Positions 1 to 64,000 of a stretch of DNA of 64,000 nt are shown piece after piece (position 1 is the first letter of the stretch; each line of letters opens with the position of its first letter). This stretch comes from a virus, in the IMG/VR virus record IMGVR_UViG_3300048997_000130, positions 1 through 64,000 of that record; one strand, 5' to 3'. The notes under the pieces were generated by a model. The model had not been told where the DNA came from and searched no databases. It saw only the letters and a program-made list of their open reading frames with translations. The position numbers and the translations under genes were made by a program.

Positions 1-1101
1 AAATATGTTGCCAATACCAATTTCACATTTCAAAAAACATCAATAAAAATCACTACTGATATATTTAACAACATCACATCATCACATCAATTATATATTA
101 ATATTGATAAAATCCAAATTCAAGCTGCATTGAAATGGGGATCGGATAATATAGACATATTAGCAGAAATGCCAACGACGCAATGTCAAGATATATTAGA
201 ATCTGTTCCAAAGGAGTTAGTTAATGAAATTATGCCAGGTACTAAATTGAATGGGCAAACCAAATGGAACGTACATATTGCTTTTGACATGCCTCATAGA
301 ATCAATCCAATTGTTGGAATAAAATTCAACAATGGATGCAAGGTTATAAATGTCCCGGAATCTATTGATATTAAAAATATCAAAAAACCTTTCCCACGAC
401 AAATATATACTAGTACCAAATTGTTGAAAACAATCATGAGCGGCCCTGGAACACCTAACTGGATTCCATTAACATTAGTATCGCCGTTCATCCCAGTAGC
501 AATTAAAACACTGGAAGATCCAGGATTTATGGGACATCGAGGTTTTTTAATTCAAGCGCTGGAAAATTCATTGATACAAGATATTCAAACAGGAAAATTG
601 GTGAGAGGTGGAAGTACTATCACCATGCAATTAGCCAAAAATTTATGGCTCAATCGCAATAAAAATCTCTCCAGGAAATTACAAGAATTAATATTAACTA
701 TTTATCTCGAACAAAATTTAAACAAAGACACTATATTAGAATATTATATGAATATAGTTGAATTCGGACCAAATATTTATGGAATTAAAGACGCCAGTCA
801 TTATTATTTCAATAAACACCCGGCTAATTTATCATTAAGTCAGTCATTATTTTTAGCATCTATTTTGCCAAAACCAAATGGATCATATTTTGACATTAAT
901 GGCATTTTAACTAATGCAAGAATACTATTCATCCGTAGAATAATGAAATCTTTGCTTGATAAAAACCTGATTTCAGAATTTGAATATGAAAAAGGAATCC
1001 GTGAAACACCTGCCTTTAAACAGGCATCTACAGGAAATGATGATATATATCCAACAATGACTTCAGATGATGGTATTGATCCAGCAGCATGGCATCAATA
1101 A
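1..1101 (+). CDS. Peptidoglycan transglycosylase (GT51) domain protein, 5'-truncated by window edge
   Basis: GT51 motifs EDPGFMGHRG, RGGSTITMQLAKNL, RKLQE, KDTILEYYMN, YGIKDASHYYF; frame 1 is open from base 1, so the true start lies upstream of the tracked TTG at 130. Confidence 0.88.
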   Translation, partial: KYVANTNFTFQKTSIKITTDIFNNITSSHQLYINIDKIQIQAALKWGSDNIDILAEMPTTQCQDILESVPKELVNEIMPGTKLNGQTKWNVHIAFDMPHRINPIVGIKFNNGCKVINVPESIDIKNIKKPFPRQIYTSTKLLKTIMSGPGTPNWIPLTLVSPFIPVAIKTLEDPGFMGHRGFLIQALENSLIQDIQTGKLVRGGSTITMQLAKNLWLNRNKNLSRKLQELILTIYLEQNLNKDTILEYYMNIVEFGPNIYGIKDASHYYFNKHPANLSLSQSLFLASILPKPNGSYFDINGILTNARILFIRRIMKSLLDKNLISEFEYEKGIRETPAFKQASTGNDDIYPTMTSDDGIDPAAWHQ

Positions 1102-1271
1102 TGCTCAATATCAGATGCTTCATAGGAGATTTGCGCAGTTGTCCTACGTGATTCAGGCAACAAATCAACAACTGCTTTATCATATTCGGACCGATTAGTT
1201 ATATCAACTGATAAAGCTCTAGAAGAAGTTAAATATCGATTAAATTTCAGAGTTAACTGCGTTTTCAACAT
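1095..1271 (-). CDS. Small hypothetical protein (58 aa)
   Basis: Open frame ATG 1271 to TGA 1095 (MLKTQLTLKFNRY...DIEHY) fills the gap after rmlB; below ORF-track cutoff; no homology recognised. Confidence 0.3.
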   Translation of the reverse strand: MLKTQLTLKFNRYLTSSRALSVDITNRSEYDKAVVDLLPESRRTTAQISYEASDIEHY

Positions 1272-1286
1272 AAACCAAGCAATTTA

Positions 1287-2336
1287 CTAAGAAGCTAACT
1301 TTTGTTCATATGTCAATAAAGAACGGACTGTTCGCTCCAGGCCTTCAGTGAAATATATATCAGGGGTCCACCCCATATTTTTCATCAAAGAACCATCTAA
1401 TGCATATCGCATATCATGCTTTGGACGCGATGGATGATAATCCACCATAGTATAATCCAGTTCTTTCCCGAGAATAGTGGCTACCGATAGAGCAACATCT
1501 AAATTAGATATTTCTTCAATACCTGTTATATTATATTTACCAATCAAATCTGTCCCATCTAAACAAGAACCTTTATTAAGTAAAAAATGAACTGCAGAAG
1601 CAACATTTTGAACATATAAATAATATCGAGAGCTGGATCGCGTCCGAGTGGAATCGGAATGGATTTGTATTGTCTCCCCACGCAAAATTTTTCGAACTAA
1701 TAATGGAATAAATTTTTCAGAATGTTGACGTTCCCCAAATACGTTGGTTGTATGAGTCACTAAAATAGGTAATCCATAAGTATTGGCATAAGCCGTACAT
1801 AAAGCCTCCGAGCCCGCTTTAGAAGCCGCATATGGATTATTAGGATTAAATCTATCCCATTCTTTGAATAACCGAGATTCTGGTGCCGGCCCAAATACTT
1901 CATCAGTAGAAAACACGACAATTTTTCCATCATTACGCAGAGCTCGCAACATATTTTGACGAAAAAAATCAAGCAAGTGAGCGGTTCCGACGACGTTATC
2001 CAATAGGAACCCAACAGGATCTTCAATACTCCTATCAACATGCGATCCAGCAGCAAAATGCACAACATGATCAAAGGGGGTTGAATATACAGACCCACGA
2101 TTAGTTAGAATCTTATCAGCAATTCCTTGATTAATCGATGCTCTTAAATCGTGATGGATGAACTGGACTCGGTTACAATGTTTGGTCCAAGTTTCCATTT
2201 CACTCAGACGATTCAAATCACCTGAAGAATCGAGCCTATCCATACATACTACGTTCCAATCGGTGACTCTCAAAATATAATCAATAAAATGATGTCCAAT
2301 AAATCCAGCACCACCAGTCACAAGGATCTTAGTCAT
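1287..2336 (-). CDS. rmlB: dTDP-glucose 4,6-dehydratase
   Basis: GGAGFIG Rossmann motif, HFAAGSHVDRSI, STDEVFG, YAASK catalytic motif, EKFIP. Confidence 0.9.
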   Translation of the reverse strand: MTKILVTGGAGFIGHHFIDYILRVTDWNVVCMDRLDSSGDLNRLSEMETWTKHCNRVQFIHHDLRASINQGIADKILTNRGSVYSTPFDHVVHFAAGSHVDRSIEDPVGFLLDNVVGTAHLLDFFRQNMLRALRNDGKIVVFSTDEVFGPAPESRLFKEWDRFNPNNPYAASKAGSEALCTAYANTYGLPILVTHTTNVFGERQHSEKFIPLLVRKILRGETIQIHSDSTRTRSSSRYYLYVQNVASAVHFLLNKGSCLDGTDLIGKYNITGIEEISNLDVALSVATILGKELDYTMVDYHPSRPKHDMRYALDGSLMKNMGWTPDIYFTEGLERTVRSLLTYEQKLAS

Positions 2337-3617
2337 TTAAATATTTTCCTTCGATATAACTATCGGATCAGGAATAGGAACGATGAATTTTCCACCATTT
2401 TCTAGATATGCTCGATGATTCCGAATGATTGATTCAGCAAAATTCCAAGCTAAAATCACTACGTAATCAGGTTGTCGTTCATAAATAGCTTGTGGAGAAA
2501 GAACAGGAATAAATTTCCCGGGAGTAAATAAACCTTGTTTTAAAGGTGCGTCTTCTACTATGAAATCAATTACCGAATTATCAAGATCAAATTGATGCAT
2601 TAATGTTGTGACTTTAGCTGGAGCACCATAACCAGCAATTTTATTGCCAACTGATTGAAAACTGGAAAGCAGTTTTCTAAGATTATTCTTTAATTTTGTT
2701 ACTTTCCAACTCAAACGACATATCGGGTTTATTGAATCTTTAGAAGGATTTTGTGGAGTCCATAGTCCCAAATCCGATTCTTTAGTTAATAAATCAAGCA
2801 TGGCTGGAGATTCAACTCTATCTGATCTCCCGACAAATGCGCGCAACGTACCACCATGATTCCGATTAATAGTGGCATCAAATAGTTTCAGTCCAAATCG
2901 TTGGAAGAACGGAACAAATGAACCAATATGATGATAATCTAAATGCTCATGATAAACAGTATCAAACAGAGTTTGATCAATAACAGCAGGCAAATAAGAT
3001 ACTTCGAAAACGAATACACCATCATTAGCTAATAAGATAGATATTCCTTTAACAATATCTATAAGATTATCAATATGAGCAAATACATTATTGGCAACAA
3101 TTAGCTTAGCAGGCCCATGTTGTTCAAGGATTTTTGATGCTAGTCTTTCCGAGAAAAATTCCGGAATAGTCTGAATCCCGGAATCATTAGCTACTTCAGC
3201 AATATTGATTGCAGGATCCACTCCAATACCACGTACACCGTTATCTACGATTGCACGTAAAAATGTTCCGTCATTACTGCCAATTTCAACAACCAAATCA
3301 TTAAGTTGAACACTGTAATCACGAATTAAATCAATTGCATAATTACGGAAATGTTCAATATTAACTGGAGATGTTCCCGATACGTACAAATATTTACGGA
3401 ACAATCGCTCAGGATTAACAACAACCGGTAATTGAACATGGCCGCATCTATGACATGTATTAAGACGTAATGGATAAATATCTTGGATTTGTCCGGATTG
3501 AACAAATTCGGAAGTAACAAATTCATTTGCTAATGGAGTAGGAATTAATTCAAATGCGGTAGTTGTATCGCCACCGCATAAACGACAATCCTGTCGAACG
3601 TAGAAATCAGAAGCCAT
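2337..3617 (-). CDS. NDP-hexose C-methyltransferase (Zn-binding N-terminus, SAM-dependent)
   Basis: N-terminal CRLCG and CHRCGHVQL Zn ligands, EIGSNDG SAM motif, ANNVFAHI, YHEHLDY, GYGAPAK, ILAWNF typical of sugar C3-methyltransferases. Confidence 0.88.
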   Translation of the reverse strand: MASDFYVRQDCRLCGGDTTTAFELIPTPLANEFVTSEFVQSGQIQDIYPLRLNTCHRCGHVQLPVVVNPERLFRKYLYVSGTSPVNIEHFRNYAIDLIRDYSVQLNDLVVEIGSNDGTFLRAIVDNGVRGIGVDPAINIAEVANDSGIQTIPEFFSERLASKILEQHGPAKLIVANNVFAHIDNLIDIVKGISILLANDGVFVFEVSYLPAVIDQTLFDTVYHEHLDYHHIGSFVPFFQRFGLKLFDATINRNHGGTLRAFVGRSDRVESPAMLDLLTKESDLGLWTPQNPSKDSINPICRLSWKVTKLKNNLRKLLSSFQSVGNKIAGYGAPAKVTTLMHQFDLDNSVIDFIVEDAPLKQGLFTPGKFIPVLSPQAIYERQPDYVVILAWNFAESIIRNHRAYLENGGKFIVPIPDPIVISKENI

Positions 3618-3633
3618 ATTTTACTCCGTGGAA

Positions 3634-4947
3634 TTAAATTGACTTTACTAAACTATCATCCAAGACTTTAATATATCCACCACCACATATAGGACAACAA
3701 TTTTTGAGATACCCGGACAAATCACATCGATCCCCAATCCATCCACAACCTGATCCATCTTTATCCGATGGAACAAATCCATAATGCCCATAACATTGGA
3801 CATTAATAGACTTAATTTTCAAATGCGTCGCAAGTTCATTCTCAATCTTCTGACATATTATCAACCATGAATGTTGATAAGCGAGTTCCGAAGCGCGTTG
3901 ATTTACAGATTCTCTAAAAGAAGAATCTAACAATGCTTGGATGACAGTATCAGAAAATTGTTTGATATTATATTTGACTGGAATTGGAGTTATTGGAATA
4001 TGGTTTCCATAAATATATGGGAGCGCATCAATAGCTGTTGTTATAGGGCATGATCGAGCTGCACAACCTTCCATTAATGTAATTGAAAATCCTTCAGTCC
4101 ACATGACAGTATCACATGAATATGCCATAACTTCAGATTTAGCAATTTCTTCACAGATTTGAGATTTACTGACAGAATCTACAATTTCAACATCATATTG
4201 TTGAAGCCTATTCAATGCTTCAACAATATAATATGCGCGATGTCGTTGTTCTTCAACATCATAATAAATATTGGATTCTGTTCCCGTAAAATGGTTTATC
4301 CAAGGCTTTAAACGATAGAAAACTCGAAGATGAGCATGCGGAACTGCTTTCTTGATTTTCGGCCATTCCTGAAGAAGCCAGTGGAGACCACGATCGGGAG
4401 AAGATGCCCAGATCACTCGACCAGGAACTTTTTGGATTCCAGATTCAAAAAGTGCATCATATCGTTCTGGATCACATCCGTCCGGAATAACAACCCATCG
4501 TATATTATTATGTTCACCATTAATTTGTTGTAATCGCTCCAAATGTGGAACTGAAGGACTAATCATTAAATCATTGAATTGACTATAACCCGCTGCACAA
4601 TGATCGAGATTATTGTTTTGAAAACTAGTGACTCTAAAAACAGTATTAGGTATGTTTTTGAATATCTCAGGATCATTCCAAGAAAAAATGACATCATAAT
4701 TCTGCGAATCCCCTACTAAACCATCATAATCATGACACATTATTTTATGCCATTTAGAAGGCATAACTCCGAGAGCTAATGTATATATATGAACATCATG
4801 TCCAAAATCAGCAAATACCTCAGCAACTCTAAAAAATGCGTATTCAGATCCGGTTAATCCACGTGGATCATCCCATATATTGGAAAAATTAAACCCCATT
4901 TTCCCAGGAATTAATCCATACGGACTATAAACAAAAGCAATTCGCAA
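3634..4947 (-). CDS. Glycosyltransferase, GT-B fold (GT4-like)
   Basis: VIPDGCD, IWASSPDRGL, EGFSITLMEGCAA (ExF-like) motifs; Cys-rich C-terminal tail. Confidence 0.8.
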   Translation of the reverse strand: MRIAFVYSPYGLIPGKMGFNFSNIWDDPRGLTGSEYAFFRVAEVFADFGHDVHIYTLALGVMPSKWHKIMCHDYDGLVGDSQNYDVIFSWNDPEIFKNIPNTVFRVTSFQNNNLDHCAAGYSQFNDLMISPSVPHLERLQQINGEHNNIRWVVIPDGCDPERYDALFESGIQKVPGRVIWASSPDRGLHWLLQEWPKIKKAVPHAHLRVFYRLKPWINHFTGTESNIYYDVEEQRHRAYYIVEALNRLQQYDVEIVDSVSKSQICEEIAKSEVMAYSCDTVMWTEGFSITLMEGCAARSCPITTAIDALPYIYGNHIPITPIPVKYNIKQFSDTVIQALLDSSFRESVNQRASELAYQHSWLIICQKIENELATHLKIKSINVQCYGHYGFVPSDKDGSGCGWIGDRCDLSGYLKNCCPICGGGYIKVLDDSLVKSI

Positions 4948-55749: not shown

Positions 55750-58700
55750 CTAACTGCCCGCTCCAACAGCTTGAAGTGCTTCTACGAGAGTCTCGGGAGC
55801 ACGCAAACTCTCTAAAACAAATTCGGAAATTTGTTTTCCTAAATCTGAATTCCGAACGTTATCGCGTTCATTGGCAGCAGCATATAAAAATGCGTTCGGA
55901 TCACCGAATAGAAATACCTTTTTCTTGGCACGAGTAATAGCTGTATAAATAAGATTCCGATATAACATCATCCCGTATTGCATAGTCATTGGCATAAGGA
56001 TATAATCGAACTCTCTACCTTGGCAATTCCATCCGCAAAATCCATTTTGAATAAAACGATGACCATCCGGGACTTCAACACACATAGATGGTCCATCAAA
56101 TATCTCAATACGCGATATAACACTATGATGGAATTTAATCCGCTCCCGTAAAGCTCGTGATTCGTTGTTTTCTATCTGAATCCGAGATAATAGGGATTCC
56201 AATTGATGGCGAGACATATAACCACGCGTCAGAACATTTTTGTCCGCAAAAGTAAAAAATTTAGGACCACCGTTAATATCTCTAATTGATAACGCTTCAG
56301 CTTTAAGTATTGGAACTTGATAATGGCATTCATTTCCATATAGAGATTTCGCTCGTAGTTGTTTCTCATCAGTTATGAAACCGATAACATCAGCAAATCG
56401 ACCAACATTCCGACCATATATATAAATAATACGATAAGTTTTCACACACCCATCACTCAGTGTTTGACGACGCTCGCCATATCCAGATATGATGCCAAAA
56501 CGAAGTAACATCACTTTCACGTCTTTATATAATGATTCATAGCAGGTTAGTAACTCAATATGATCAACAGTCCCTAGATCTGGATTCATATTGACAGTGC
56601 CATCTTCAAACAAACCGCGCAAGAAGGCTGCTTGCACGGTCAGTGAAGAACGTAAAACAGATAATGGAACAGATTTATTTTCCGGTCCGATTCCTCCAAT
56701 ATCTAGAAGCCAGCGAGATAAAAATGTGGAATGGACTTCAATACCAGCGGTTCCGTTATGATCAATATGTTTCGGATGGCATTTAAAAAGTAACTTACAT
56801 AATTCATCGAAACGTATGATTACATCATTGGATGATGTAATCATACGAAATCCACCATCAAACACAGTTCCATCTGCGACCATTATGCCAAGAAATTCCG
56901 CCATATGAACATCCAATTCCGTAGGCACCGGATATTGGACTTCATTATAATGACCGCTGATAGGAGCAGGAAGAAACCTATTCGATTGCTCCCCCCATTG
57001 AACGCCAAGACGCAAAGCCAGTAAATTTCCTTCCACAAGCTCTGAAGCCGGACGACGAATATATCCATATTTAGAATCCCAAGTATCCATTCCATGATCA
57101 GGAGTGGTTTCAAGTACGTAACCATCTGAAGTGGTTATACGAAGCATACGACTGGAAGGATTATTGACTTTGGAATGATATTCAGCGCCGCCAGAAGGAG
57201 TAGCAATAGAACCATCAGATGGTATATCAGAAATCCGAATTAAACCTTCTGGAGTCTCAACTAGTGTATCCGGAGACACACATTTATGCGCTGTACATGC
57301 ATATGCAACATTCAACATTGAACGACATTCTTCAATCTTGAATGTGAATGTCTTATCTATATATTCAGGAACAGTAGATTCATGATTGAACCATTCAAAT
57401 ATTTTGACTTCAACCACGTCATCTTTAGCCGATATACGTTGGACTTTTCCAACGTCTCCATTGAAAATCATTCTATCATAGTCATTCTTCACGACCATGA
57501 TTCGATCCCCTTCATATAAATCACAAACGCCATGTTTTATTTTATAAGCATTGCCAGCGATATACATAGGATTTAATATCTCTCGCAATTTCTTATTTAG
57601 ATTATTAACTCCAAGTTCGCCATCATATTTAGGAGCAATAACTTGAAATAATGCGTCACGTGTCATCATTCTTTCAGTGAGGGCACATATTTCGTCAGCT
57701 ACTTGAGGCTGTGGGAAACGGAAAAATACGAATTGAGAATCCTTTCGAAAATCAGTATCTATTGCATCCCCAGCAAGTATCTGATGTGCCACTGTTATAA
57801 TATCAGACCTATCAGTCTGTCGATAAATCCGAGTCAATGATACATGCGGAACATCATCACAACGCATCAGATTATTGAGAACATAACCAGCGCCAACTGA
57901 TGGTAATTGTGCAGAGTCCCCAACACATATCAAAATAGTAGTAGATGGAAGCGCCGAAATTAAATGATAAAATGTTGCTCCATCAACCATTGAAGTTTCA
58001 TCAACAATGACAGCATCAACATGGAATTTATTCGATGAATGAAATTCCCATCCGCCATCTCGTTTATATCCAAGAGCCCGATGAATTGTAGAAGCCGGTT
58101 TCCCCGTCACTTGTGATAATCGTTTAGAAGCAATACCAGTTGGTGATAATAATACATAATGTAGATGATTCTCTTCGAATAAATCAACAAATGCAGAAAT
58201 TAATGTGGTCTTCCCGGTTCCAGGATAACCTGATATAACACACACTTTGGAATGTTCAAGCAGCATTAATGCTTGACGTTGATGCTCCGAAAGCGTTATA
58301 TTACGACGTTTTTCATATTTATCCAAAAATCCAGATAGATCACCCAAATCTTTTGGTCCATTGGCAAGTAAGTCCACTAAATATTTAGCAGATTCAGATT
58401 CATATTGCCAATTTTGGATTGAATATATTCGGGAATTATCAACGACTATATCATCATCTTCTTTTAATTGATCAAGAGCTGTGTAGAACGAAATATCTGA
58501 TAAATATTCACCATGAGAAAATGGATCGAGTCCAATTTTTTTGAACAGCCTTTGAACATACTCACGAATCTGATCCGCGGATACATACATATGTCCTTCA
58601 GATGATGATAATTCATGGATGATATATAAAATCATTGCATTAACACGGCGTTGATCGTCTCGACCGACTCCCAATTGCCGAGCAACGTTATCGGACGTTT

Positions 58701-59277
58701 GAAATCCAACGCCAGGACATTCATACAGCCAGTATGGATTTTCTTTGACTAATCGAACTGATTCAATTCCGAATCTAGTATATACGGATCGAATCTGAGA
58801 AGCAGTTAAACCTAAATTACTAAGGAATATTGCGGCCGTTCTCTGTTCAGAAGCTACTCGCCACTCATCAATTATAGATTCAATCTGTTTCTGGCTAAGA
58901 AAATCACAATCGGCAAGCTTTTCGGGCTCCGTATCCAACAATGTTATAAGATCATCACCATAAACTGCATATAATTTTCCAGCTGTTACTGGACCAATGG
59001 ACGGAACGTTATTCACTAAATATGTGATTATTCCAGATCTACTTTTTTCTGGTAATACTTCACAAGTAGTCATTCGAAATTCACGTCCATACTGGGGATG
59101 ATCGCCCCAGATGCCACGTGCATGAATTTTAATACCGACAGCTACAGGTTGACCAAGGAATGATCCCTTAACTGTAACTACAGACGCTGGTTTCTCAGGT
59201 TGAACCTTAAGAATATAATATCCAGTGCCCCGGTTGGAATACATAATTCCAACAATTTTTCCGATGAGTTCTTCCAC
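55750..59277 (-). CDS. recD2: RecD2-like SF1B helicase, intein-containing (about 756 aa spliced)
   Basis: N-terminal OB/HhH, GYPGTGKTT, VIVDETSM, GDSAQLPSVG, AYACTAHK-CQG, YTAITRAK. Confidence 0.92.
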   Translation of the reverse strand: MEELIGKIVGIMYSNRGTGYYILKVQPEKPASVVTVKGSFLGQPVAVGIKIHARGIWGDHPQYGREFRMTTCEVLPEKSRSGIITYLVNNVPSIGPVTAGKLYAVYGDDLITLLDTEPEKLADCDFLSQKQIESIIDEWRVASEQRTAAIFLSNLGLTASQIRSVYTRFGIESVRLVKENPYWLYECPGVGFQTSDNVARQLGVGRDDQRRVNAMILYIIHELSSSEGHMYVSADQIREYVQRLFKKIGLDPFSHGEYLSDISFYTALDQLKEDDDIVVDNSRIYSIQNWQYESESAKYLVDLLANGPKDLGDLSGFLDKYEKRRNITLSEHQRQALMLLEHSKVCVISGYPGTGKTTLISAFVDLFEENHLHYVLLSPTGIASKRLSQVTGKPASTIHRALGYKRDGGWEFHSSNKFHVDAVIVDETSMVDGATFYHLISALPSTTILICVGDSAQLPSVGAGYVLNNLMRCDDVPHVSLTRIYRQTDRSDIITVAHQILAGDAIDTDFRKDSQFVFFRFPQPQVADEICALTERMMTRDALFQVIAPKYDGELGVNNLNKKLREILNPMYIAGNAYKIKHGVCDLYEGDRIMVVKNDYDRMIFNGDVGKVQRISAKDDVVEVKIFEWFNHESTVPEYIDKTFTFKIEECRSMLNVAYACTAHKCVSPDTLVETPEGLIRISDIPSDGSIATPSGGAEYHSKVNNPSSRMLRITTSDGYVLETTPDHGMDTWDSKYGYIRRPASELVEGNLLALRLGVQWGEQSNRFLPAPISGHYNEVQYPVPTELDVHMAEFLGIMVADGTVFDGGFRMITSSNDVIIRFDELCKLLFKCHPKHIDHNGTAGIEVHSTFLSRWLLDIGGIGPENKSVPLSVLRSSLTVQAAFLRGLFEDGTVNMNPDLGTVDHIELLTCYESLYKDVKVMLLRFGIISGYGERRQTLSDGCVKTYRIIYIYGRNVGRFADVIGFITDEKQLRAKSLYGNECHYQVPILKAEALSIRDINGGPKFFTFADKNVLTRGYMSRHQLESLLSRIQIENNESRALRERIKFHHSVISRIEIFDGPSMCVEVPDGHRFIQNGFCGWNCQGREFDYILMPMTMQYGMMLYRNLIYTAITRAKKKVFLFGDPNAFLYAAANERDNVRNSDLGKQISEFVLESLRAPETLVEALQAVGAGS
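56026..57282 (-). mobile_element. Helicase intein (419 aa), LAGLIDADG
   Basis: CVSPDTLV start after TAHK; FLGIMVADG, FLRGLFEDG; MCVEVPDGHRFIQNGFCGWN then Cys+1. Confidence 0.9.
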
Positions 59278-59295
59278 TGAATTGTACTTATTAGG

Positions 59296-60108
59296 TTAGG
59301 ATTGGATAGTGATTAAGTTATATAAATCAGTCTCACTAAGCACAGGAACGTTATATTTCCTGGCATTCTTCATTTTACTAGAATTTGTATCTGGATTATT
59401 GGTAACTAAGTAGGATGTGGTCTTAGACACAGAACTTTTAGGGAATCCCCCGACATCCATAATATCTCTTTCAACTGCTTTCCTGGGTCGAGTAAGTTCT
59501 CCAGTTATGCAAAGCGTCTTTCCTGATAGTATACCACCAACAGCTTGACGTACGTTTATTACTGACACTAAATCAATAAATAATTCACGTCTAAATAATA
59601 AACCTTCTTGAATTTGACGAGCTGTCTTCTCTCCAATATTCGGAACTGCTCTTAAAGCATCATAATCAATATTCAAGATTTTGTCAACAGTATTAAAACC
59701 AGCTTGAATTAAATCAGTAGCCGTACTTATTCCAAAATTTGGAATATTTAATGATGCAAGAATTAATTCTAAAGACAAATCTTTATTACTGTGTAATACT
59801 TCATAACATTTAGCAGCCATTTTCGGACCAGAGCAATATTGTTCTAAATCAGCAACAGTTAATCGATATAAATCAGCAACAGATTTAACGATTGAATTGG
59901 ATGAAATAATAGCATCTATAGTAGCATCTCCCCAATGCAGAAGTCCAAGATTTCGAATCCAAACTTTTAGAGAACCCGATAATTTCGATGGACAGACGTT
60001 ATTCTTACAATATAAAAAATCACCTTGAATTATAGTTACACTAGAACAAATCGGACAGAATTCGGGAATTTTGAATAATATGGGATCCACTATAATATAA
60101 ACATACAA
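59296..60108 (-). CDS. ligA: NAD-dependent DNA ligase, C-terminal part (Zn finger, HhH, BRCT)
   Basis: CPICSS...YCKNNVCP, HhH IPNFG and VPNIG, BRCT LSGKTLCITGEL...SVSKTTSYLV...KMKNARKYNV; start may be GTG 60090. Confidence 0.9.
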   Translation of the reverse strand: MYVYIIVDPILFKIPEFCPICSSVTIIQGDFLYCKNNVCPSKLSGSLKVWIRNLGLLHWGDATIDAIISSNSIVKSVADLYRLTVADLEQYCSGPKMAAKCYEVLHSNKDLSLELILASLNIPNFGISTATDLIQAGFNTVDKILNIDYDALRAVPNIGEKTARQIQEGLLFRRELFIDLVSVINVRQAVGGILSGKTLCITGELTRPRKAVERDIMDVGGFPKSSVSKTTSYLVTNNPDTNSSKMKNARKYNVPVLSETDLYNLITIQS

Positions 60109-60130
60109 GAAAGACTATCATTCAAAACCT

Positions 60131-60682
60131 TTATTCAGTTTCAGATTCCTCTTTAGGTTTTTCTTCTTTATCATCTTCGTATTCATCGAAATCCTCCGAA
60201 CCTTCCAAATCTAATTCCGTTTCAAAATCTTCTTCTGGTCGTTGCGGAGCAGGGGCTGGAGTTGGTTCAGGAGTCGGAGCAGGGGCTGGAGACATTACAG
60301 GTTCATGCCCAAAGGTCTTCTCGCGAACCATTGCGGCATCACCATCATGGAATCCTTTCATAAATTCATTCATATCTTCCCCAATATCCAAGACACGTGT
60401 GGAAATAGATTCCAATCCACTGAGTTCAGCTCCGACGAAATCACTTTGAAGCCGAGCTAATTTAGAATATGTAACTGATAAGTCCTTCAGAATATCGGCA
60501 ATATATGAATTGACTCTCTGCCATTCAGCATCATGTTCAGAATCATGTTCAGAATTATTACCAGATAATGCTGAATTTACTTCATACGCCACTCGTGAAA
60601 AAGATTTTCCAGTAATAGAGTCCACTGAATTATCCAATAATACAGAAGTAGTTCTGGCGACATTTGCAAAATGGGAATCCAT
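60131..60682 (-). CDS. Hypothetical protein with Pro-rich linker and acidic tail
   Basis: 183 aa; PAPAPTPEPTPAPAP; EDFDEYEDDKEE. Confidence 0.7.
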   Translation of the reverse strand: MDSHFANVARTTSVLLDNSVDSITGKSFSRVAYEVNSALSGNNSEHDSEHDAEWQRVNSYIADILKDLSVTYSKLARLQSDFVGAELSGLESISTRVLDIGEDMNEFMKGFHDGDAAMVREKTFGHEPVMSPAPAPTPEPTPAPAPQRPEEDFETELDLEGSEDFDEYEDDKEEKPKEESETE

Positions 60683-60842
60683 GTTATTATTAAAATAAAT
60701 TAAAAATCCAGGTTCAGTAAATTTAATATAAATTCATTTTATTCAAATAAGATAATAATTATGTTAACGCCGTTACCTGAATAAATTAAATTTAATAGTT
60801 AGTTCCAAATTACGAGCCATTAATATAATAATTTCGAAAATC

Positions 60843-61322
60843 CCAGCAATTGATGCTGACTCATTTTATGATGCATATCATTATATCGGAAAATGCAAAG
60901 CTAAAATAAACTATGGTGTATATTTTGAAGAACAATTAATTGCATGCGCCACATTCAAACCTCCAACTCGCCAATCCAAACATCCTTGGGAATTAGTCCG
61001 AATGACTTCCCATCCACAATTCCGCGTTCATGGCATTTGGTCCAAAATCTTGAAACAATTTATTCAAGATTTTGGACCAAAGTCAATTGTGAGTTTTTCA
61101 GATAATAGGTTATTCTCTGGGAAAGTTTACGAGAAAATTGGATTCCAGTTTGATGGTGACGTCCGACCTGATTATTATTGGGTGAAAGGTCAAAACCGAT
61201 ACCATAAATCGGTATTGCGTAAAAAACCGGGAGAAGTTGGTACTGAAACTATACTCCGTCAAATTGATGGTTTCCGGAAAATTTGGGACTTAGGAAAGAA
61301 ACGTTGGGTGTTAACATTATGA
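60843..61322 (+). CDS. Stand-alone Mom/Hef-like GNAT-type domain, start uncertain
   Basis: Frame open from at least 60843 (PAIDADSFYDAYHYIG...YGVYFEEQLIACATF...WELVRM...IVSFSDNR...VYEKIGF...PDYYW); no ATG/GTG/TTG in frame upstream of 61002. Confidence 0.65.
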   Translation, partial: PAIDADSFYDAYHYIGKCKAKINYGVYFEEQLIACATFKPPTRQSKHPWELVRMTSHPQFRVHGIWSKILKQFIQDFGPKSIVSFSDNRLFSGKVYEKIGFQFDGDVRPDYYWVKGQNRYHKSVLRKKPGEVGTETILRQIDGFRKIWDLGKKRWVLTL

Positions 61323-62428
61323 ATGATAACATAGATTTAGATGAATTAAAATCAGAACTTAAACAAGCGCGTCTAGCTTATTTTAATTTAAATCCTGTCA
61401 TATCTGATGCGGAATATGATGCCAAAAAAGAATTATTAGCTAAATACGAACCTGACGCAGCAGAAATCAAAGCGGTAGGAGCGGATCCGCCTAAGATATC
61501 AGTGTGGGAAAAAGTCCAACATAAAATACCGATGGGGTCTCTAGATAAGGTTAATACTGAATCGGAATTCCTAGAGTGGGCTAATAAACTAGGATCTGAT
61601 ACATCATTTTTATTTATTCATAAAATTGATGGATCGAGTATGGAAGTTGTCTATGAACATGGTCAGTTAATTCGATGCGTCACCAGAGGGAACGGGATAA
61701 TTGGGGAAGATATAACCAATAATGGAATACAGATCCCTAATATTCCTAAGTTCATTCCGATACAACATGAAGAAATAATCATACGTGGCGAAGTTGTCAT
61801 GTTGAAAGATGTCTTCCATAATAAATATGCTCAAGTATACGCCAATCCAAGGAACACAGCCAACGGAAAACTTCGAGAACGTAAGTCTGGAGGTTTAAAT
61901 TGTGCCGATCTCATATTTTTAGCGTTTACTTTGGAATCCAGTTCTGCACCAAAGCTGGAATATCTAAGAATGAAAGCTCTTCAAAAAATGGGATTTTCTG
62001 TTCCAGAATTTGAAGTAGGATCTGCAGCACAAGCAGTAAGCTGGCAACAATCAATAATAGGAAACAGGAATTCGATTCCATACGAAATCGATGGAATCGT
62101 AGTTCGAGCCAATAATATTTCTCTCCAAGAAGAGCTTGGAGAAATAAATATGAGACCTAGAGCTCAAATCGCTTATAAATTCGAATCTGCTACCGGGATT
62201 TCCCAAGTCATAGATATAAAATGGCAAGTAGGATTGACTGGTCGAATTACAGCAGTAGCATCTGTGGAACCAGTTAATATTGGAGGCGTAGTAATCACTT
62301 CCATATCACTTCATAATTTAAAATTATTCCAAGATTTAAAATTATTTAAAGGATGTAGAATATTGATCTCACGTCGTAATGACGTTATTCCGTATTGTGA
62401 AAAAAATTTAGATGCAGCGTCAGATTAG
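61319..62428 (+). CDS. ligA: NAD-dependent DNA ligase, N-terminal part (Ia, adenylation, OB)
   Basis: ISDAEYD, HKIPMGSLDK, HKIDG, RGEV, NPRNTANG, YEIDGIV, IAYKF, QVGLTG, RRNDVIP; start reassigned to ATG 61319. Confidence 0.93.
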   Translation: MNDNIDLDELKSELKQARLAYFNLNPVISDAEYDAKKELLAKYEPDAAEIKAVGADPPKISVWEKVQHKIPMGSLDKVNTESEFLEWANKLGSDTSFLFIHKIDGSSMEVVYEHGQLIRCVTRGNGIIGEDITNNGIQIPNIPKFIPIQHEEIIIRGEVVMLKDVFHNKYAQVYANPRNTANGKLRERKSGGLNCADLIFLAFTLESSSAPKLEYLRMKALQKMGFSVPEFEVGSAAQAVSWQQSIIGNRNSIPYEIDGIVVRANNISLQEELGEINMRPRAQIAYKFESATGISQVIDIKWQVGLTGRITAVASVEPVNIGGVVITSISLHNLKLFQDLKLFKGCRILISRRNDVIPYCEKNLDAASD

Positions 62429-62430
62429 AT

Positions 62431-63438
62431 ATGATTTATAATACTATCACAGGTATCACTAGTTATTTAACATCTCTAGATGGATTCAATAGATTAATTA
62501 TTGATAGAAGGCGAGCTGTAAAAAATGAAGAACTGTTAGATGAATTTATAATTTTAGGCCATTGGACAATTGATAAATTTGGTCAATGTATCAAAATTGG
62601 AAGCAGTGAAACTCCAGATGGATATCGGAGACCCGGTGTACAAGAATTAATTAATATATCCAATCCAGGAGAAACTGTGATTTCTAAACAGGGATTTTAT
62701 GATGAATGGCCCGGAGTTATATTAACTACGCATTTTGAATCACAAATTCCTAAGTCATCTTTAATATGTCCAGTATGTGGATTGGGTTGGAATATTAAAA
62801 ATTGTTATGATACTCAAACGCTCGAAAAATCTATTGATTATCAATTATCCAAACAAATCGGAAAATCATTATACGATTTTCTGAATGAAAATCTCCCACA
62901 AGATGAGCTGTGGATATATAGAGGCGAGATTCGGAATGATGCATTAATCGATAATGCTCCTCATCCAAGTGTGATAGGAGCAAAAGTTAATGAACATGGC
63001 TGGTATAGACCAGCCGTTGAATCATGCCATATGATACAAGATGGAGATTATGCAGCGTTTGCAGTGCAAACGTTTTTTCATAAACAATGTTATTCAGCAA
63101 GGATTAGTCAACAAATTAGAAAAAGTTATGTAGAAATGTTAGAAAAATCTGGTTGGGGAGATTCTGAATTGATAGCTATTCCCAATGAATATTCAACATA
63201 CGAGAAGTTCGAACCATGGTTTTTAGTCAAACATCCATTAGGGACGCTCAAAATCGGGTGGAGGAAACGCGTTCTCCAAATTGATTGGTCAGGGACCGGG
63301 ATTCCAATATTTGATGAATTTCGTGATGAAAAAACAACTCATAACACCACATTTATACATGCACATAATCTAGAAAAAGCGGCTGATTATTTAAAAATAA
63401 TCAAATTTAAGATTCAACAGGCGACCGCGTTGCGTTAA
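62431..63438 (+). CDS. Hypothetical protein
   Basis: 335 aa; CPVCG; C-terminal IPNEY...PWFLV...KIGWRKRV. Confidence 0.7.
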   Translation: MIYNTITGITSYLTSLDGFNRLIIDRRRAVKNEELLDEFIILGHWTIDKFGQCIKIGSSETPDGYRRPGVQELINISNPGETVISKQGFYDEWPGVILTTHFESQIPKSSLICPVCGLGWNIKNCYDTQTLEKSIDYQLSKQIGKSLYDFLNENLPQDELWIYRGEIRNDALIDNAPHPSVIGAKVNEHGWYRPAVESCHMIQDGDYAAFAVQTFFHKQCYSARISQQIRKSYVEMLEKSGWGDSELIAIPNEYSTYEKFEPWFLVKHPLGTLKIGWRKRVLQIDWSGTGIPIFDEFRDEKTTHNTTFIHAHNLEKAADYLKIIKFKIQQATALR

Positions 63439-63664
63439 GCATAGACTCGAGCGCTTCCATGGTTTCAAACGAAACTATAGTAAGTCGTATTCTTTTACCG
63501 TCCAAATGTTGTAATGCGACTTGTAAATCCAGTCCTTTATTATCTTCATCCACTAATACAAATCGTTGAGTATTAGGATCTAATGTGACTATGCCATCAA
63601 TAATTAATCCGGCATCAAATCCATGTTGGAATTGATCTCGTTTATTATCATAATCAATTGCCAT
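63407..63664 (-). CDS. Small hypothetical protein
   Basis: 85-aa ORF. Confidence 0.6.
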   Translation of the reverse strand: MAIDYDNKRDQFQHGFDAGLIIDGIVTLDPNTQRFVLVDEDNKGLDLQVALQHLDGKRIRLTIVSFETMEALESMLNATRSPVES

Positions 63665-63761
63665 TTATAATCTCATGCATCGAATAAATTCCTGAATTAT
63701 ACTCAACCATACTATTATTAGATATAATCCAAGCATCAGCCCTATAATTTCTAATAAAAAT

Positions 63762-64000
63762 ATGGCATCAGGATCTCACGCCTTATTCTTGCAAGGCGCT
63801 AAAGAGTTATATTCTAAGATTAAATCATCTTCTGATTTTAGAGTCCAATCATATACTAGTCCAGTAGAACATTTGATATCGGAATTTGAATCTTGGGAAT
63901 TAGAACCTCCTGAAGATATACGACGAGTTCAATCAATTGTTAAATTGATTGAACTCACCAGAACCATCAATGAGCTCATAGTCAACAGTTCGAAACCAAG
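63762..64000 (+). CDS. Hypothetical protein, 3'-truncated by window edge
   Basis: ATG GCA TCA GGA at 63762, frame open to the end of the window. Confidence 0.55.
   Translation, partial: MASGSHALFLQGAKELYSKIKSSSDFRVQSYTSPVEHLISEFESWELEPPEDIRRVQSIVKLIELTRTINELIVNSSKP

Follow-up and report, generated by a model that had tools for sequence, protein, structure and literature searches.

The first 64 kb of a 196,676-base virus record in IMG/VR (IMGVR_UViG_3300048997_000130; CheckV completeness 44%), hereafter the window, raises the question of whether a NAD+-dependent DNA ligase (LigA) can remain one enzyme when its parts are encoded by two genes that point away from each other. Two open reading frames (ORFs) lie head to head on opposite strands of the window, 1.2 kb apart, and divide the domains of LigA between them: an N-terminal half (N-half; 61319..62428, + strand) and a C-terminal half (C-half; 59296..60108, − strand). 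We consider it highly probable that these ORFs are subunits of a single NAD+-dependent DNA ligase, that they associate non-covalently, and that the pair was produced by an inversion.

The domain content of the two ORFs is that of a complete ligase. The N-half comprises domain Ia (aa 1–62), the nucleotidyltransferase (NTase) domain (aa 63–290) with the KxDG lysine at K102, and the OB fold (aa 295–364), and ends in a short tail (CEKNLDAASD) before a TAG stop. It matches the Pfam families PF01653 (adenylation domain, E 3e-50, aa 63–290) and PF03120 (OB, E 8e-19, aa 295–364), and aligns with residues ~8–387 of the solved LigA structures from E. coli and Thermus; a TTG at 61283 is an alternative start. 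The C-half has a short head (LFKIPEF), a Cys4 zinc finger (C18, C21, C34, and C39), helix-hairpin-helix (HhH) repeats, and a BRCT domain (aa 192–266). It matches HhH and BRCT families in Pfam, and aligns with LigA residues ~401–669, including the four zinc cysteines, starting just before the zinc finger. The database gene call for the C-half (264 aa) starts at a GTG at 60090, six codons inside the longest ORF, and this is probably the true start. Together, the pair carries the NAD+-binding residues of domain Ia, the NTase motifs, the OB fold, the Cys4 zinc finger, the HhH repeats, and the BRCT domain, although not on a single polypeptide as in one-chain LigA. The full-length profile phrog_3869 is covered by the two ORFs in turn (positions 5–383 by the N-half and 389–650 by the C-half), hence nothing was lost or duplicated at the cut, which falls between domains, in the OB/Zn linker. 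An initial annotation of this DNA had already assigned domain Ia, adenylation, and OB functions to the + gene, and had the − gene begin where LigA continues, and the alignments agree with it on both counts. Its description of the arrangement was also accurate, with an acidic ORF and a Mom-like ORF in the ~1.2 kb between the starts, as was its observation that read-through of the TAG would meet a TGA two codons on (TAG-ATA-TGA).

The same split, which the initial annotation thought worth seeking in related phages, is widespread. Relatives were gathered by searches with both halves and an alignment of C-half homologs (46 IMG/VR loci plus several other contigs). A tblastn survey found the layout of the window in ~27 independent loci, with the N-half on one strand and the acidic gene, the C-half, and a RecD2-type helicase gene on the other, at 39–62% identity and with widely different G+C contents. 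Five of the genomes with this layout have direct terminal repeats and are rated 100% complete (362–436 kb). Each encodes one LigA NTase domain, which is that of the N-half, in an open frame of 367–410 aa. Likewise, each ligase half is single-copy in the 196,676-base record, and the intact ligA elsewhere that would have spoken against a split enzyme was found in neither the record nor the complete relatives. The C-half matched 115 clusters in the protein database, nearly all of them standalone proteins of 258–277 aa (46–67% identity). Both halves always co-occur in the surveyed relatives, and neither contains stops or frameshifts across the ~27 loci.

Conservation within the two halves extends to the residues on which LigA depends. 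Across 25 divergent forms, the equivalents of E. coli K115, D117, G118, R136, E143, E173, R200, R208, D285, and K314 are invariant (K102, D104, G105, R123, E130, E158, R178, R186, D258, and K287 in the window), and the equivalent of R277 (window R250) is kept in 24 of 25. In domain Ia, the equivalents of Y22, D32, and D36 (window Y21, D30, and D34) are invariant, while that of Y35 (window Y33) is tyrosine in 24 forms and phenylalanine in one. The four zinc cysteines of the C-half are also invariant. Ratios of nonsynonymous to synonymous substitution rates (dN/dS; NG86 method, restricted to pairs with unsaturated synonymous sites) were 0.16–0.46 for the N-half and 0.17–0.41 for the C-half, compared with 0.11–0.38 for the neighboring RecD2 helicase. 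The ratios, which the initial annotation had named as a check, point to purifying selection similar to that on the helicase and indicate relaxed selection in neither half.

A LigA in two chains is not without precedent, and the premise of the initial annotation that LigA is normally one chain overlooked the pair encoded by T5-like phages. In T5, the adjacent genes ligA (T5.116) and ligB (T5.117) are designated as subunits A and B of NAD-dependent DNA ligase (PMC3632103). Structures 9HU3 and 9I5I in PDB contain a 339-aa "DNA ligase (NAD(+))" and a 248-aa "DNA ligase subunit B," the latter matching subunit B of a T5-like phage (E 8e-77), and half-length families are already present in PHROGs (phrog_3359 and phrog_3498). 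The two-chain principle is thus established by T5-like phages and is not new here. The likeness is close in several respects: in T5-like phages (Demerecviridae), subunit A (~326–339 aa, NTase–OB) and subunit B (~248–255 aa, Zn–HhH–BRCT) are also cut in the OB/Zn linker, no inteins are involved, and 9hu3_A matches aa 10–360 of the N-half while 9hu3_B matches aa 12–245 of the C-half. However, the T5 genes are adjacent and co-directional, whereas those of the window are divergent and separated by 1.2 kb that holds another gene, and the T5-like subunits are only 26–30% identical to the window halves. In the ligase tree, T5-like sequences fall in another clade, among fused LigAs, and the window clade (99% support in the SH-like approximate likelihood ratio test, SH-aLRT) has fused outgroups. 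The T5-like and window splits therefore appear to be independent in origin, a result that the long branches make provisional.

To assess the potential for association between the halves, we folded the pair with alignments of both (three runs and three controls). The N-half and C-half gave an ipSAE of 0.66 in three runs, compared with 0.01 for the best control; the mark applied is reached by 58 of 80 solved complexes and by 2 of 110 mismatched pairs. Contact agreement between runs was at least 68% and partner pLDDT at least 81. The predicted interface brings OB residues 299–346 together with C-half residues 9–44 (head and zinc finger), and corresponds to the native intramolecular OB/Zn contact of solved LigA, which is also that of 9HU3. 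The fold supports binding of the two halves, short of proof. Compared with one-chain LigA (E. coli 2OWO and Thermus filiformis 1DGS), the pair has all the domains and essential residues in the same order, and a predicted OB/Zn contact of native type, but it lacks the covalent OB–Zn link and its parts are encoded on opposite strands.

The pair is thus most likely a conserved two-subunit NAD+-dependent ligase that functions in trans, as the initial annotation had proposed, a reading that the intact, conserved halves and the predicted complex both favor. The analyses establish the domain content, conservation, selection, and layout history of the locus, whereas we infer its physical assembly, activity, and transcription. 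The N-half (Ia–NTase–OB) would self-adenylylate from NAD+ and carry out the phosphodiester, or nick-sealing, chemistry, and the C-half (Zn–HhH–BRCT) would provide the DNA clamp. Joined mainly by the native OB/Zn-finger contact, the two would form a heterodimer that closes round nicked DNA in the manner of one-chain LigA. Domain-deletion studies are consistent with such a division of labor, given that an N-terminal fragment of LigA self-adenylylates but requires Zn/HhH for nick sealing.

How the two genes came to diverge is suggested by relatives in which they are not separated. A search for longer relatives recovered five full-length LigA clusters (P0116–P0120; 630–655 aa, 49–58% identity to the C-half), and a sixth fused ligA ORF runs off the start of its contig (L011). 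Fused relatives P0119–P0120 have the acidic gene on one strand and, diverging from it, ligA followed by recD2 on the other, whereas for P0116 (L064) the contig end cuts the upstream gene. One further relative (L035) has the acidic gene on the − strand and the N-half, the C-half, and recD2 in series on the + strand. Its ligase ORFs adjoin as TAA-A-ATG with a GGAGG site, which marks a genuine co-linear split rather than a mere frameshift. These members of the clade share 49–75% identity and the same recD2 and acidic-gene neighbors with the window; unlike it, P0116–P0120 and L011 are single ORFs and L035 consists of two adjacent co-directional ORFs. The linker of the fused forms (DVIPYIExNLD ... 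LFxIPxxCPxC) equals the N-half tail plus the C-half head of the split forms, and the motifs YIEKNLD and LFxIPxxCPxC are common to split forms and to fused or co-linear relatives.

From these comparisons, the layout of the window corresponds to inversion of a block made up of the acidic gene and the N-half, broken at one end within the OB/Zn linker and at the other past the acidic gene. This block spans ~2.3 kb of the window (~60120 to ~62430), and the flanks on the ribonucleotide reductase side and the recD2 side are unmoved in the relatives compared. The predicted inner junction (60109..60130, no strand) is the 22 bases from the stop of the acidic gene to the longest C-half start, as judged from the sequence and from the layout of the fused relatives. 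The outer junction (62426..62433, +), placed from the sequence and the ORF list, comprises the N-half stop TAG and the ATG of the next ORF two bases on. Inversion of the ancestral fused layout yields the order seen in the window, so that no insertion is needed. Of the insertion plus inversion put forward in the initial annotation, the inversion is therefore upheld by the gene order of the fused relatives, while the insertion is not supported, given that the acidic gene is ancestral in the fused relatives examined and the Mom-like ORF came later. After such an inversion, the N-half would retain its own divergent promoter and upstream region, and the C-half would be placed downstream of the acidic gene, in the direction of recD2 transcription. 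We also considered a programmed invertible segment, but the breakpoints lack inverted repeats in the window, the fused relatives, and L035 alike, and no fused/split pair is closer than ~65–70% identity. Hence, the inversion is old, and the changes represent rare old events and not an active switch.

The layout nonetheless appears to have changed more than once. The ligase tree places the co-linear L035 as sister to all others in the group and the fused forms at three points among the divergent ones; trees of the N-part and the C-part built separately give the same picture. Under the approximately unbiased (AU) test, the divergent forms are rejected as one clade (P = 0.010), as are the fused forms (P = 0.023). 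For the divergent forms, rejection came only once the five full-length fused relatives had been added; with L011 as the sole fused row, their monophyly was not rejected (P = 0.38 for the ligase and 0.91 for RecD2). Because well-supported branches force them, at least three layout changes are indicated by the phylogeny. These may represent repeated splitting or repeated re-fusion, as the tree does not settle the direction, and recombination between phages may have contributed. The clade contains ~110 split and 5 fused protein clusters. A bolder scenario, to which we attach little weight, is that in this giant-phage clade the block of the acidic gene and the 5′ part of ligA flipped repeatedly, switching the enzyme between one chain and two, with the two-chain state favored, perhaps because uncoupling of the modules pays. 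If so, the two modules could gain from being regulated separately, the neighboring RecD2/Mre11 repair genes could make use of the clamp half, or the enzyme could evade a host factor directed against intact LigA.

Some observations weigh against the pair as a single working ligase. The equivalent of E. coli K290 differs among the divergent forms (S/R/T), although fused phage LigAs vary there to the same extent and T5-like subunit A has R. As the halves belong to separate transcription units, they need not be expressed equally, and the passing fold may reflect the likeness of the interface to the contact in solved LigA and 9HU3 rather than binding. An ATP-dependent DNA ligase of ~410–420 aa (PF01068 and PF14743) is also encoded in the complete relatives, although none was seen in the incomplete record of the window. 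With this second ligase present, the NAD+-dependent enzyme need not be replicative, and a weaker enzyme would be tolerable; it may serve repair rather than replication. The ATP-dependent ligase genes are at 518–1786 in L058, 393–1664 in L059, and 465–1691 in L060, and these complete relatives additionally encode a second, shorter ligase or capping-enzyme-like nucleotidyltransferase.

One alternative is that the halves function separately. The N-half, unaided or with some other partner, would be a minimal adenylyltransferase or ligase dependent on NAD+, and the C-half, on its own, an HhH/BRCT DNA-binding scaffold for the adjacent RecD2, Mre11-like, and PD-(D/E)XK repair genes. In its favor, the C-half in every case immediately precedes recD2 and shares its direction, whereas transcription of the N-half runs the other way; the complete relatives have an ATP-dependent ligase at their disposal; and isolated N-terminal LigA fragments can reportedly self-adenylylate, according to deletion work from the Shuman laboratory. 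We nevertheless regard separate functions as unlikely. Fused and split forms alternate among close relatives with no visible change in the conserved residues of either half, the halves are always found together, and the OB and zinc-finger surfaces that touch in the model consist of invariant residues. Moreover, E. coli LigA without Zn/HhH reportedly cannot seal nicks. Still less probable, to the point of being hard to credit, is that ligA was broken by rearrangement and is decaying, dispensable thanks to the ATP-dependent ligase. Although the second ligase and a region rich in mobile elements (the recD2 intein, a LAGLIDADG gene beside the N-half in L003 and L004, and a nuclease–GNAT remnant) would suit decay, both halves are free of stops and frameshifts across loci spanning 40–60% identity, the two have equal dN/dS values far under 1, and the catalytic and zinc residues are all invariant or nearly so. 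An assembly artifact in the contig of the window can be set aside almost entirely, since the same orientation and neighbors recur across samples in dozens of contigs assembled independently, among them closed genomes that have terminal repeats. The divergent layout is thus neither misassembly nor decay, because ~27 independent contigs are alike, key residues are kept, and selection is purifying.

Between the two halves of the putative two-subunit ligase lie two further genes. The conserved acidic protein (60131..60682, −) is encoded in all divergent loci, and its gene is the ancestral divergent neighbor of ligA, within the inverted block. It is also found in the fused loci L062 and L063 and, with less certainty, in L035, where identity is 24% and tblastn gave no hit. 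A role as an adaptor for the split alone could be ruled out for this protein: its gene also adjoins fused ligA and is therefore a conserved neighbor. The protein is modeled as a helical hairpin (aa 44–112, pLDDT above 95; mean pLDDT 75) followed by a disordered Pro-rich and acidic tail. It has no Pfam or PHROG family, and Foldseek against PDB and BFVD returned only generic helical-hairpin rows with E above 0.1.

The second gene appears to be a later, lineage-specific remnant of a mobile element, namely a 5′-truncated nuclease (REase_MTES_1575) plus GNAT/Mom-like gene (60768..61322, +). The "Mom-like" ORF (61002–61322, +) is the 3′ part of a frame that is open from 60768 and has its first ATG at 61002. 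This frame is 55% identical to aa 524–703 of an ORF (704 aa) that L027 carries at this site, in which a Pfam scan (also run on the corresponding L011 ORF) identified a REase_MTES_1575-type nuclease domain and a GNAT/Mom-like domain. PHROG matches of the remnant are to the C-terminal ends only of homing/HNH endonuclease families, and a search of the 197-kb record (E ≤ 1e-3) detected no second copy. The coding frame of the remnant contains a perfect 19-base inverted repeat with an 8-base loop (61036–61081). The nuclease–GNAT/Mom-like element is multi-copy in L027 (890–1207, 3419–3733, and 10531–10848) and also present in L011 (4815–5132); several copies in one relative and differing sites in others are as expected of a mobile gene.

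Other mobile elements surround the ligase genes in relatives, and the neighborhood is a hot spot for them. In L003 (7070–7918, −) and L004 (7121–7921, −), a free-standing gene for a LAGLIDADG_2 homing endonuclease overlaps the N-half gene at its 3′ end. This endonuclease gene is degraded in L005 (7186–7542, −) and missing from the window, in which the N-half is followed by an unrelated ORF of 335 aa. In the fused-form relative L063, the class II ribonucleotide reductase (1–3855) next to the ligase region carries an intein with a LAGLIDADG domain. Such elements may have been the source of the DNA breaks behind the rearrangements. The locus resembles genes split by homing endonucleases or split inteins, such as Aeh1 nrdA/mobE and the "fractured genes" with split inteins (PMC2677866), in that a conserved gene of phage replication is present as two ORFs and genes for mobile endonucleases lie close by. 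It differs in that the window has no intein halves, its break is attributed to inversion and not to an inserted endonuclease gene, and the LAGLIDADG gene stands beside the N-half only in some relatives, unlike in endonuclease-split genes. The absence of intein motifs at the ends, as described in the initial annotation, was confirmed. Split inteins and protein trans-splicing are ruled out, as both break ends align with the ordinary linker of fused relatives and the flanks extend only 10–20 aa past DVIP in the N-half tail and 5–12 aa before CPxC in the C-half head, leaving no room for intein halves.

The RecD2-type helicase gene (55750..59277, −; Pfam and tblastn survey) is the syntenic anchor of the region: in all relatives with contigs that extend to this point, it is the immediate downstream neighbor of the C-half or of fused ligA. 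In the window the protein is 1175 aa long owing to an intein with a LAGLIDADG domain, compared with ~740–760 aa in most relatives, and the helicases of L005 and L018 have insertions at another site. On the other side, the 335-aa ORF that begins two bases past the N-half stop (62431–63438, +) gave no lead in Pfam, PHROG, fold, or Atlas comparisons; in its C-terminal part, it weakly resembles (27%) the gene that immediately follows the N-half in L009. A blastn comparison of the ligase region with the phage collection gave no match, and a scan of 59000–63800 for sigma-70 promoters and terminators gave no signal above shuffled background and was uninformative.

No published description was found of a divergent, inversion-made split ligase in giant phages. 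What is new here is the independent origin of a split in a giant-phage clade, the divergent orientation made by inversion, the occurrence of fused, co-linear, and divergent ligases in related phages, and a layout that changed state repeatedly. The result is a natural experiment on the modularity of LigA, in which the OB/Zn linker is the site of the cut in two phage lineages that are unrelated, and a single clade offers fused, co-linear split, and divergent split versions for direct comparison. For annotation, standalone Zn–HhH–BRCT proteins encoded by giant phages are better called ligase subunit B than given no name or taken for whole ligases. More generally, the locus suggests that one inversion can split a gene and yet keep both of its parts expressed, because the N-half would keep its promoter region and the C-half would join the transcription direction of its neighbor.

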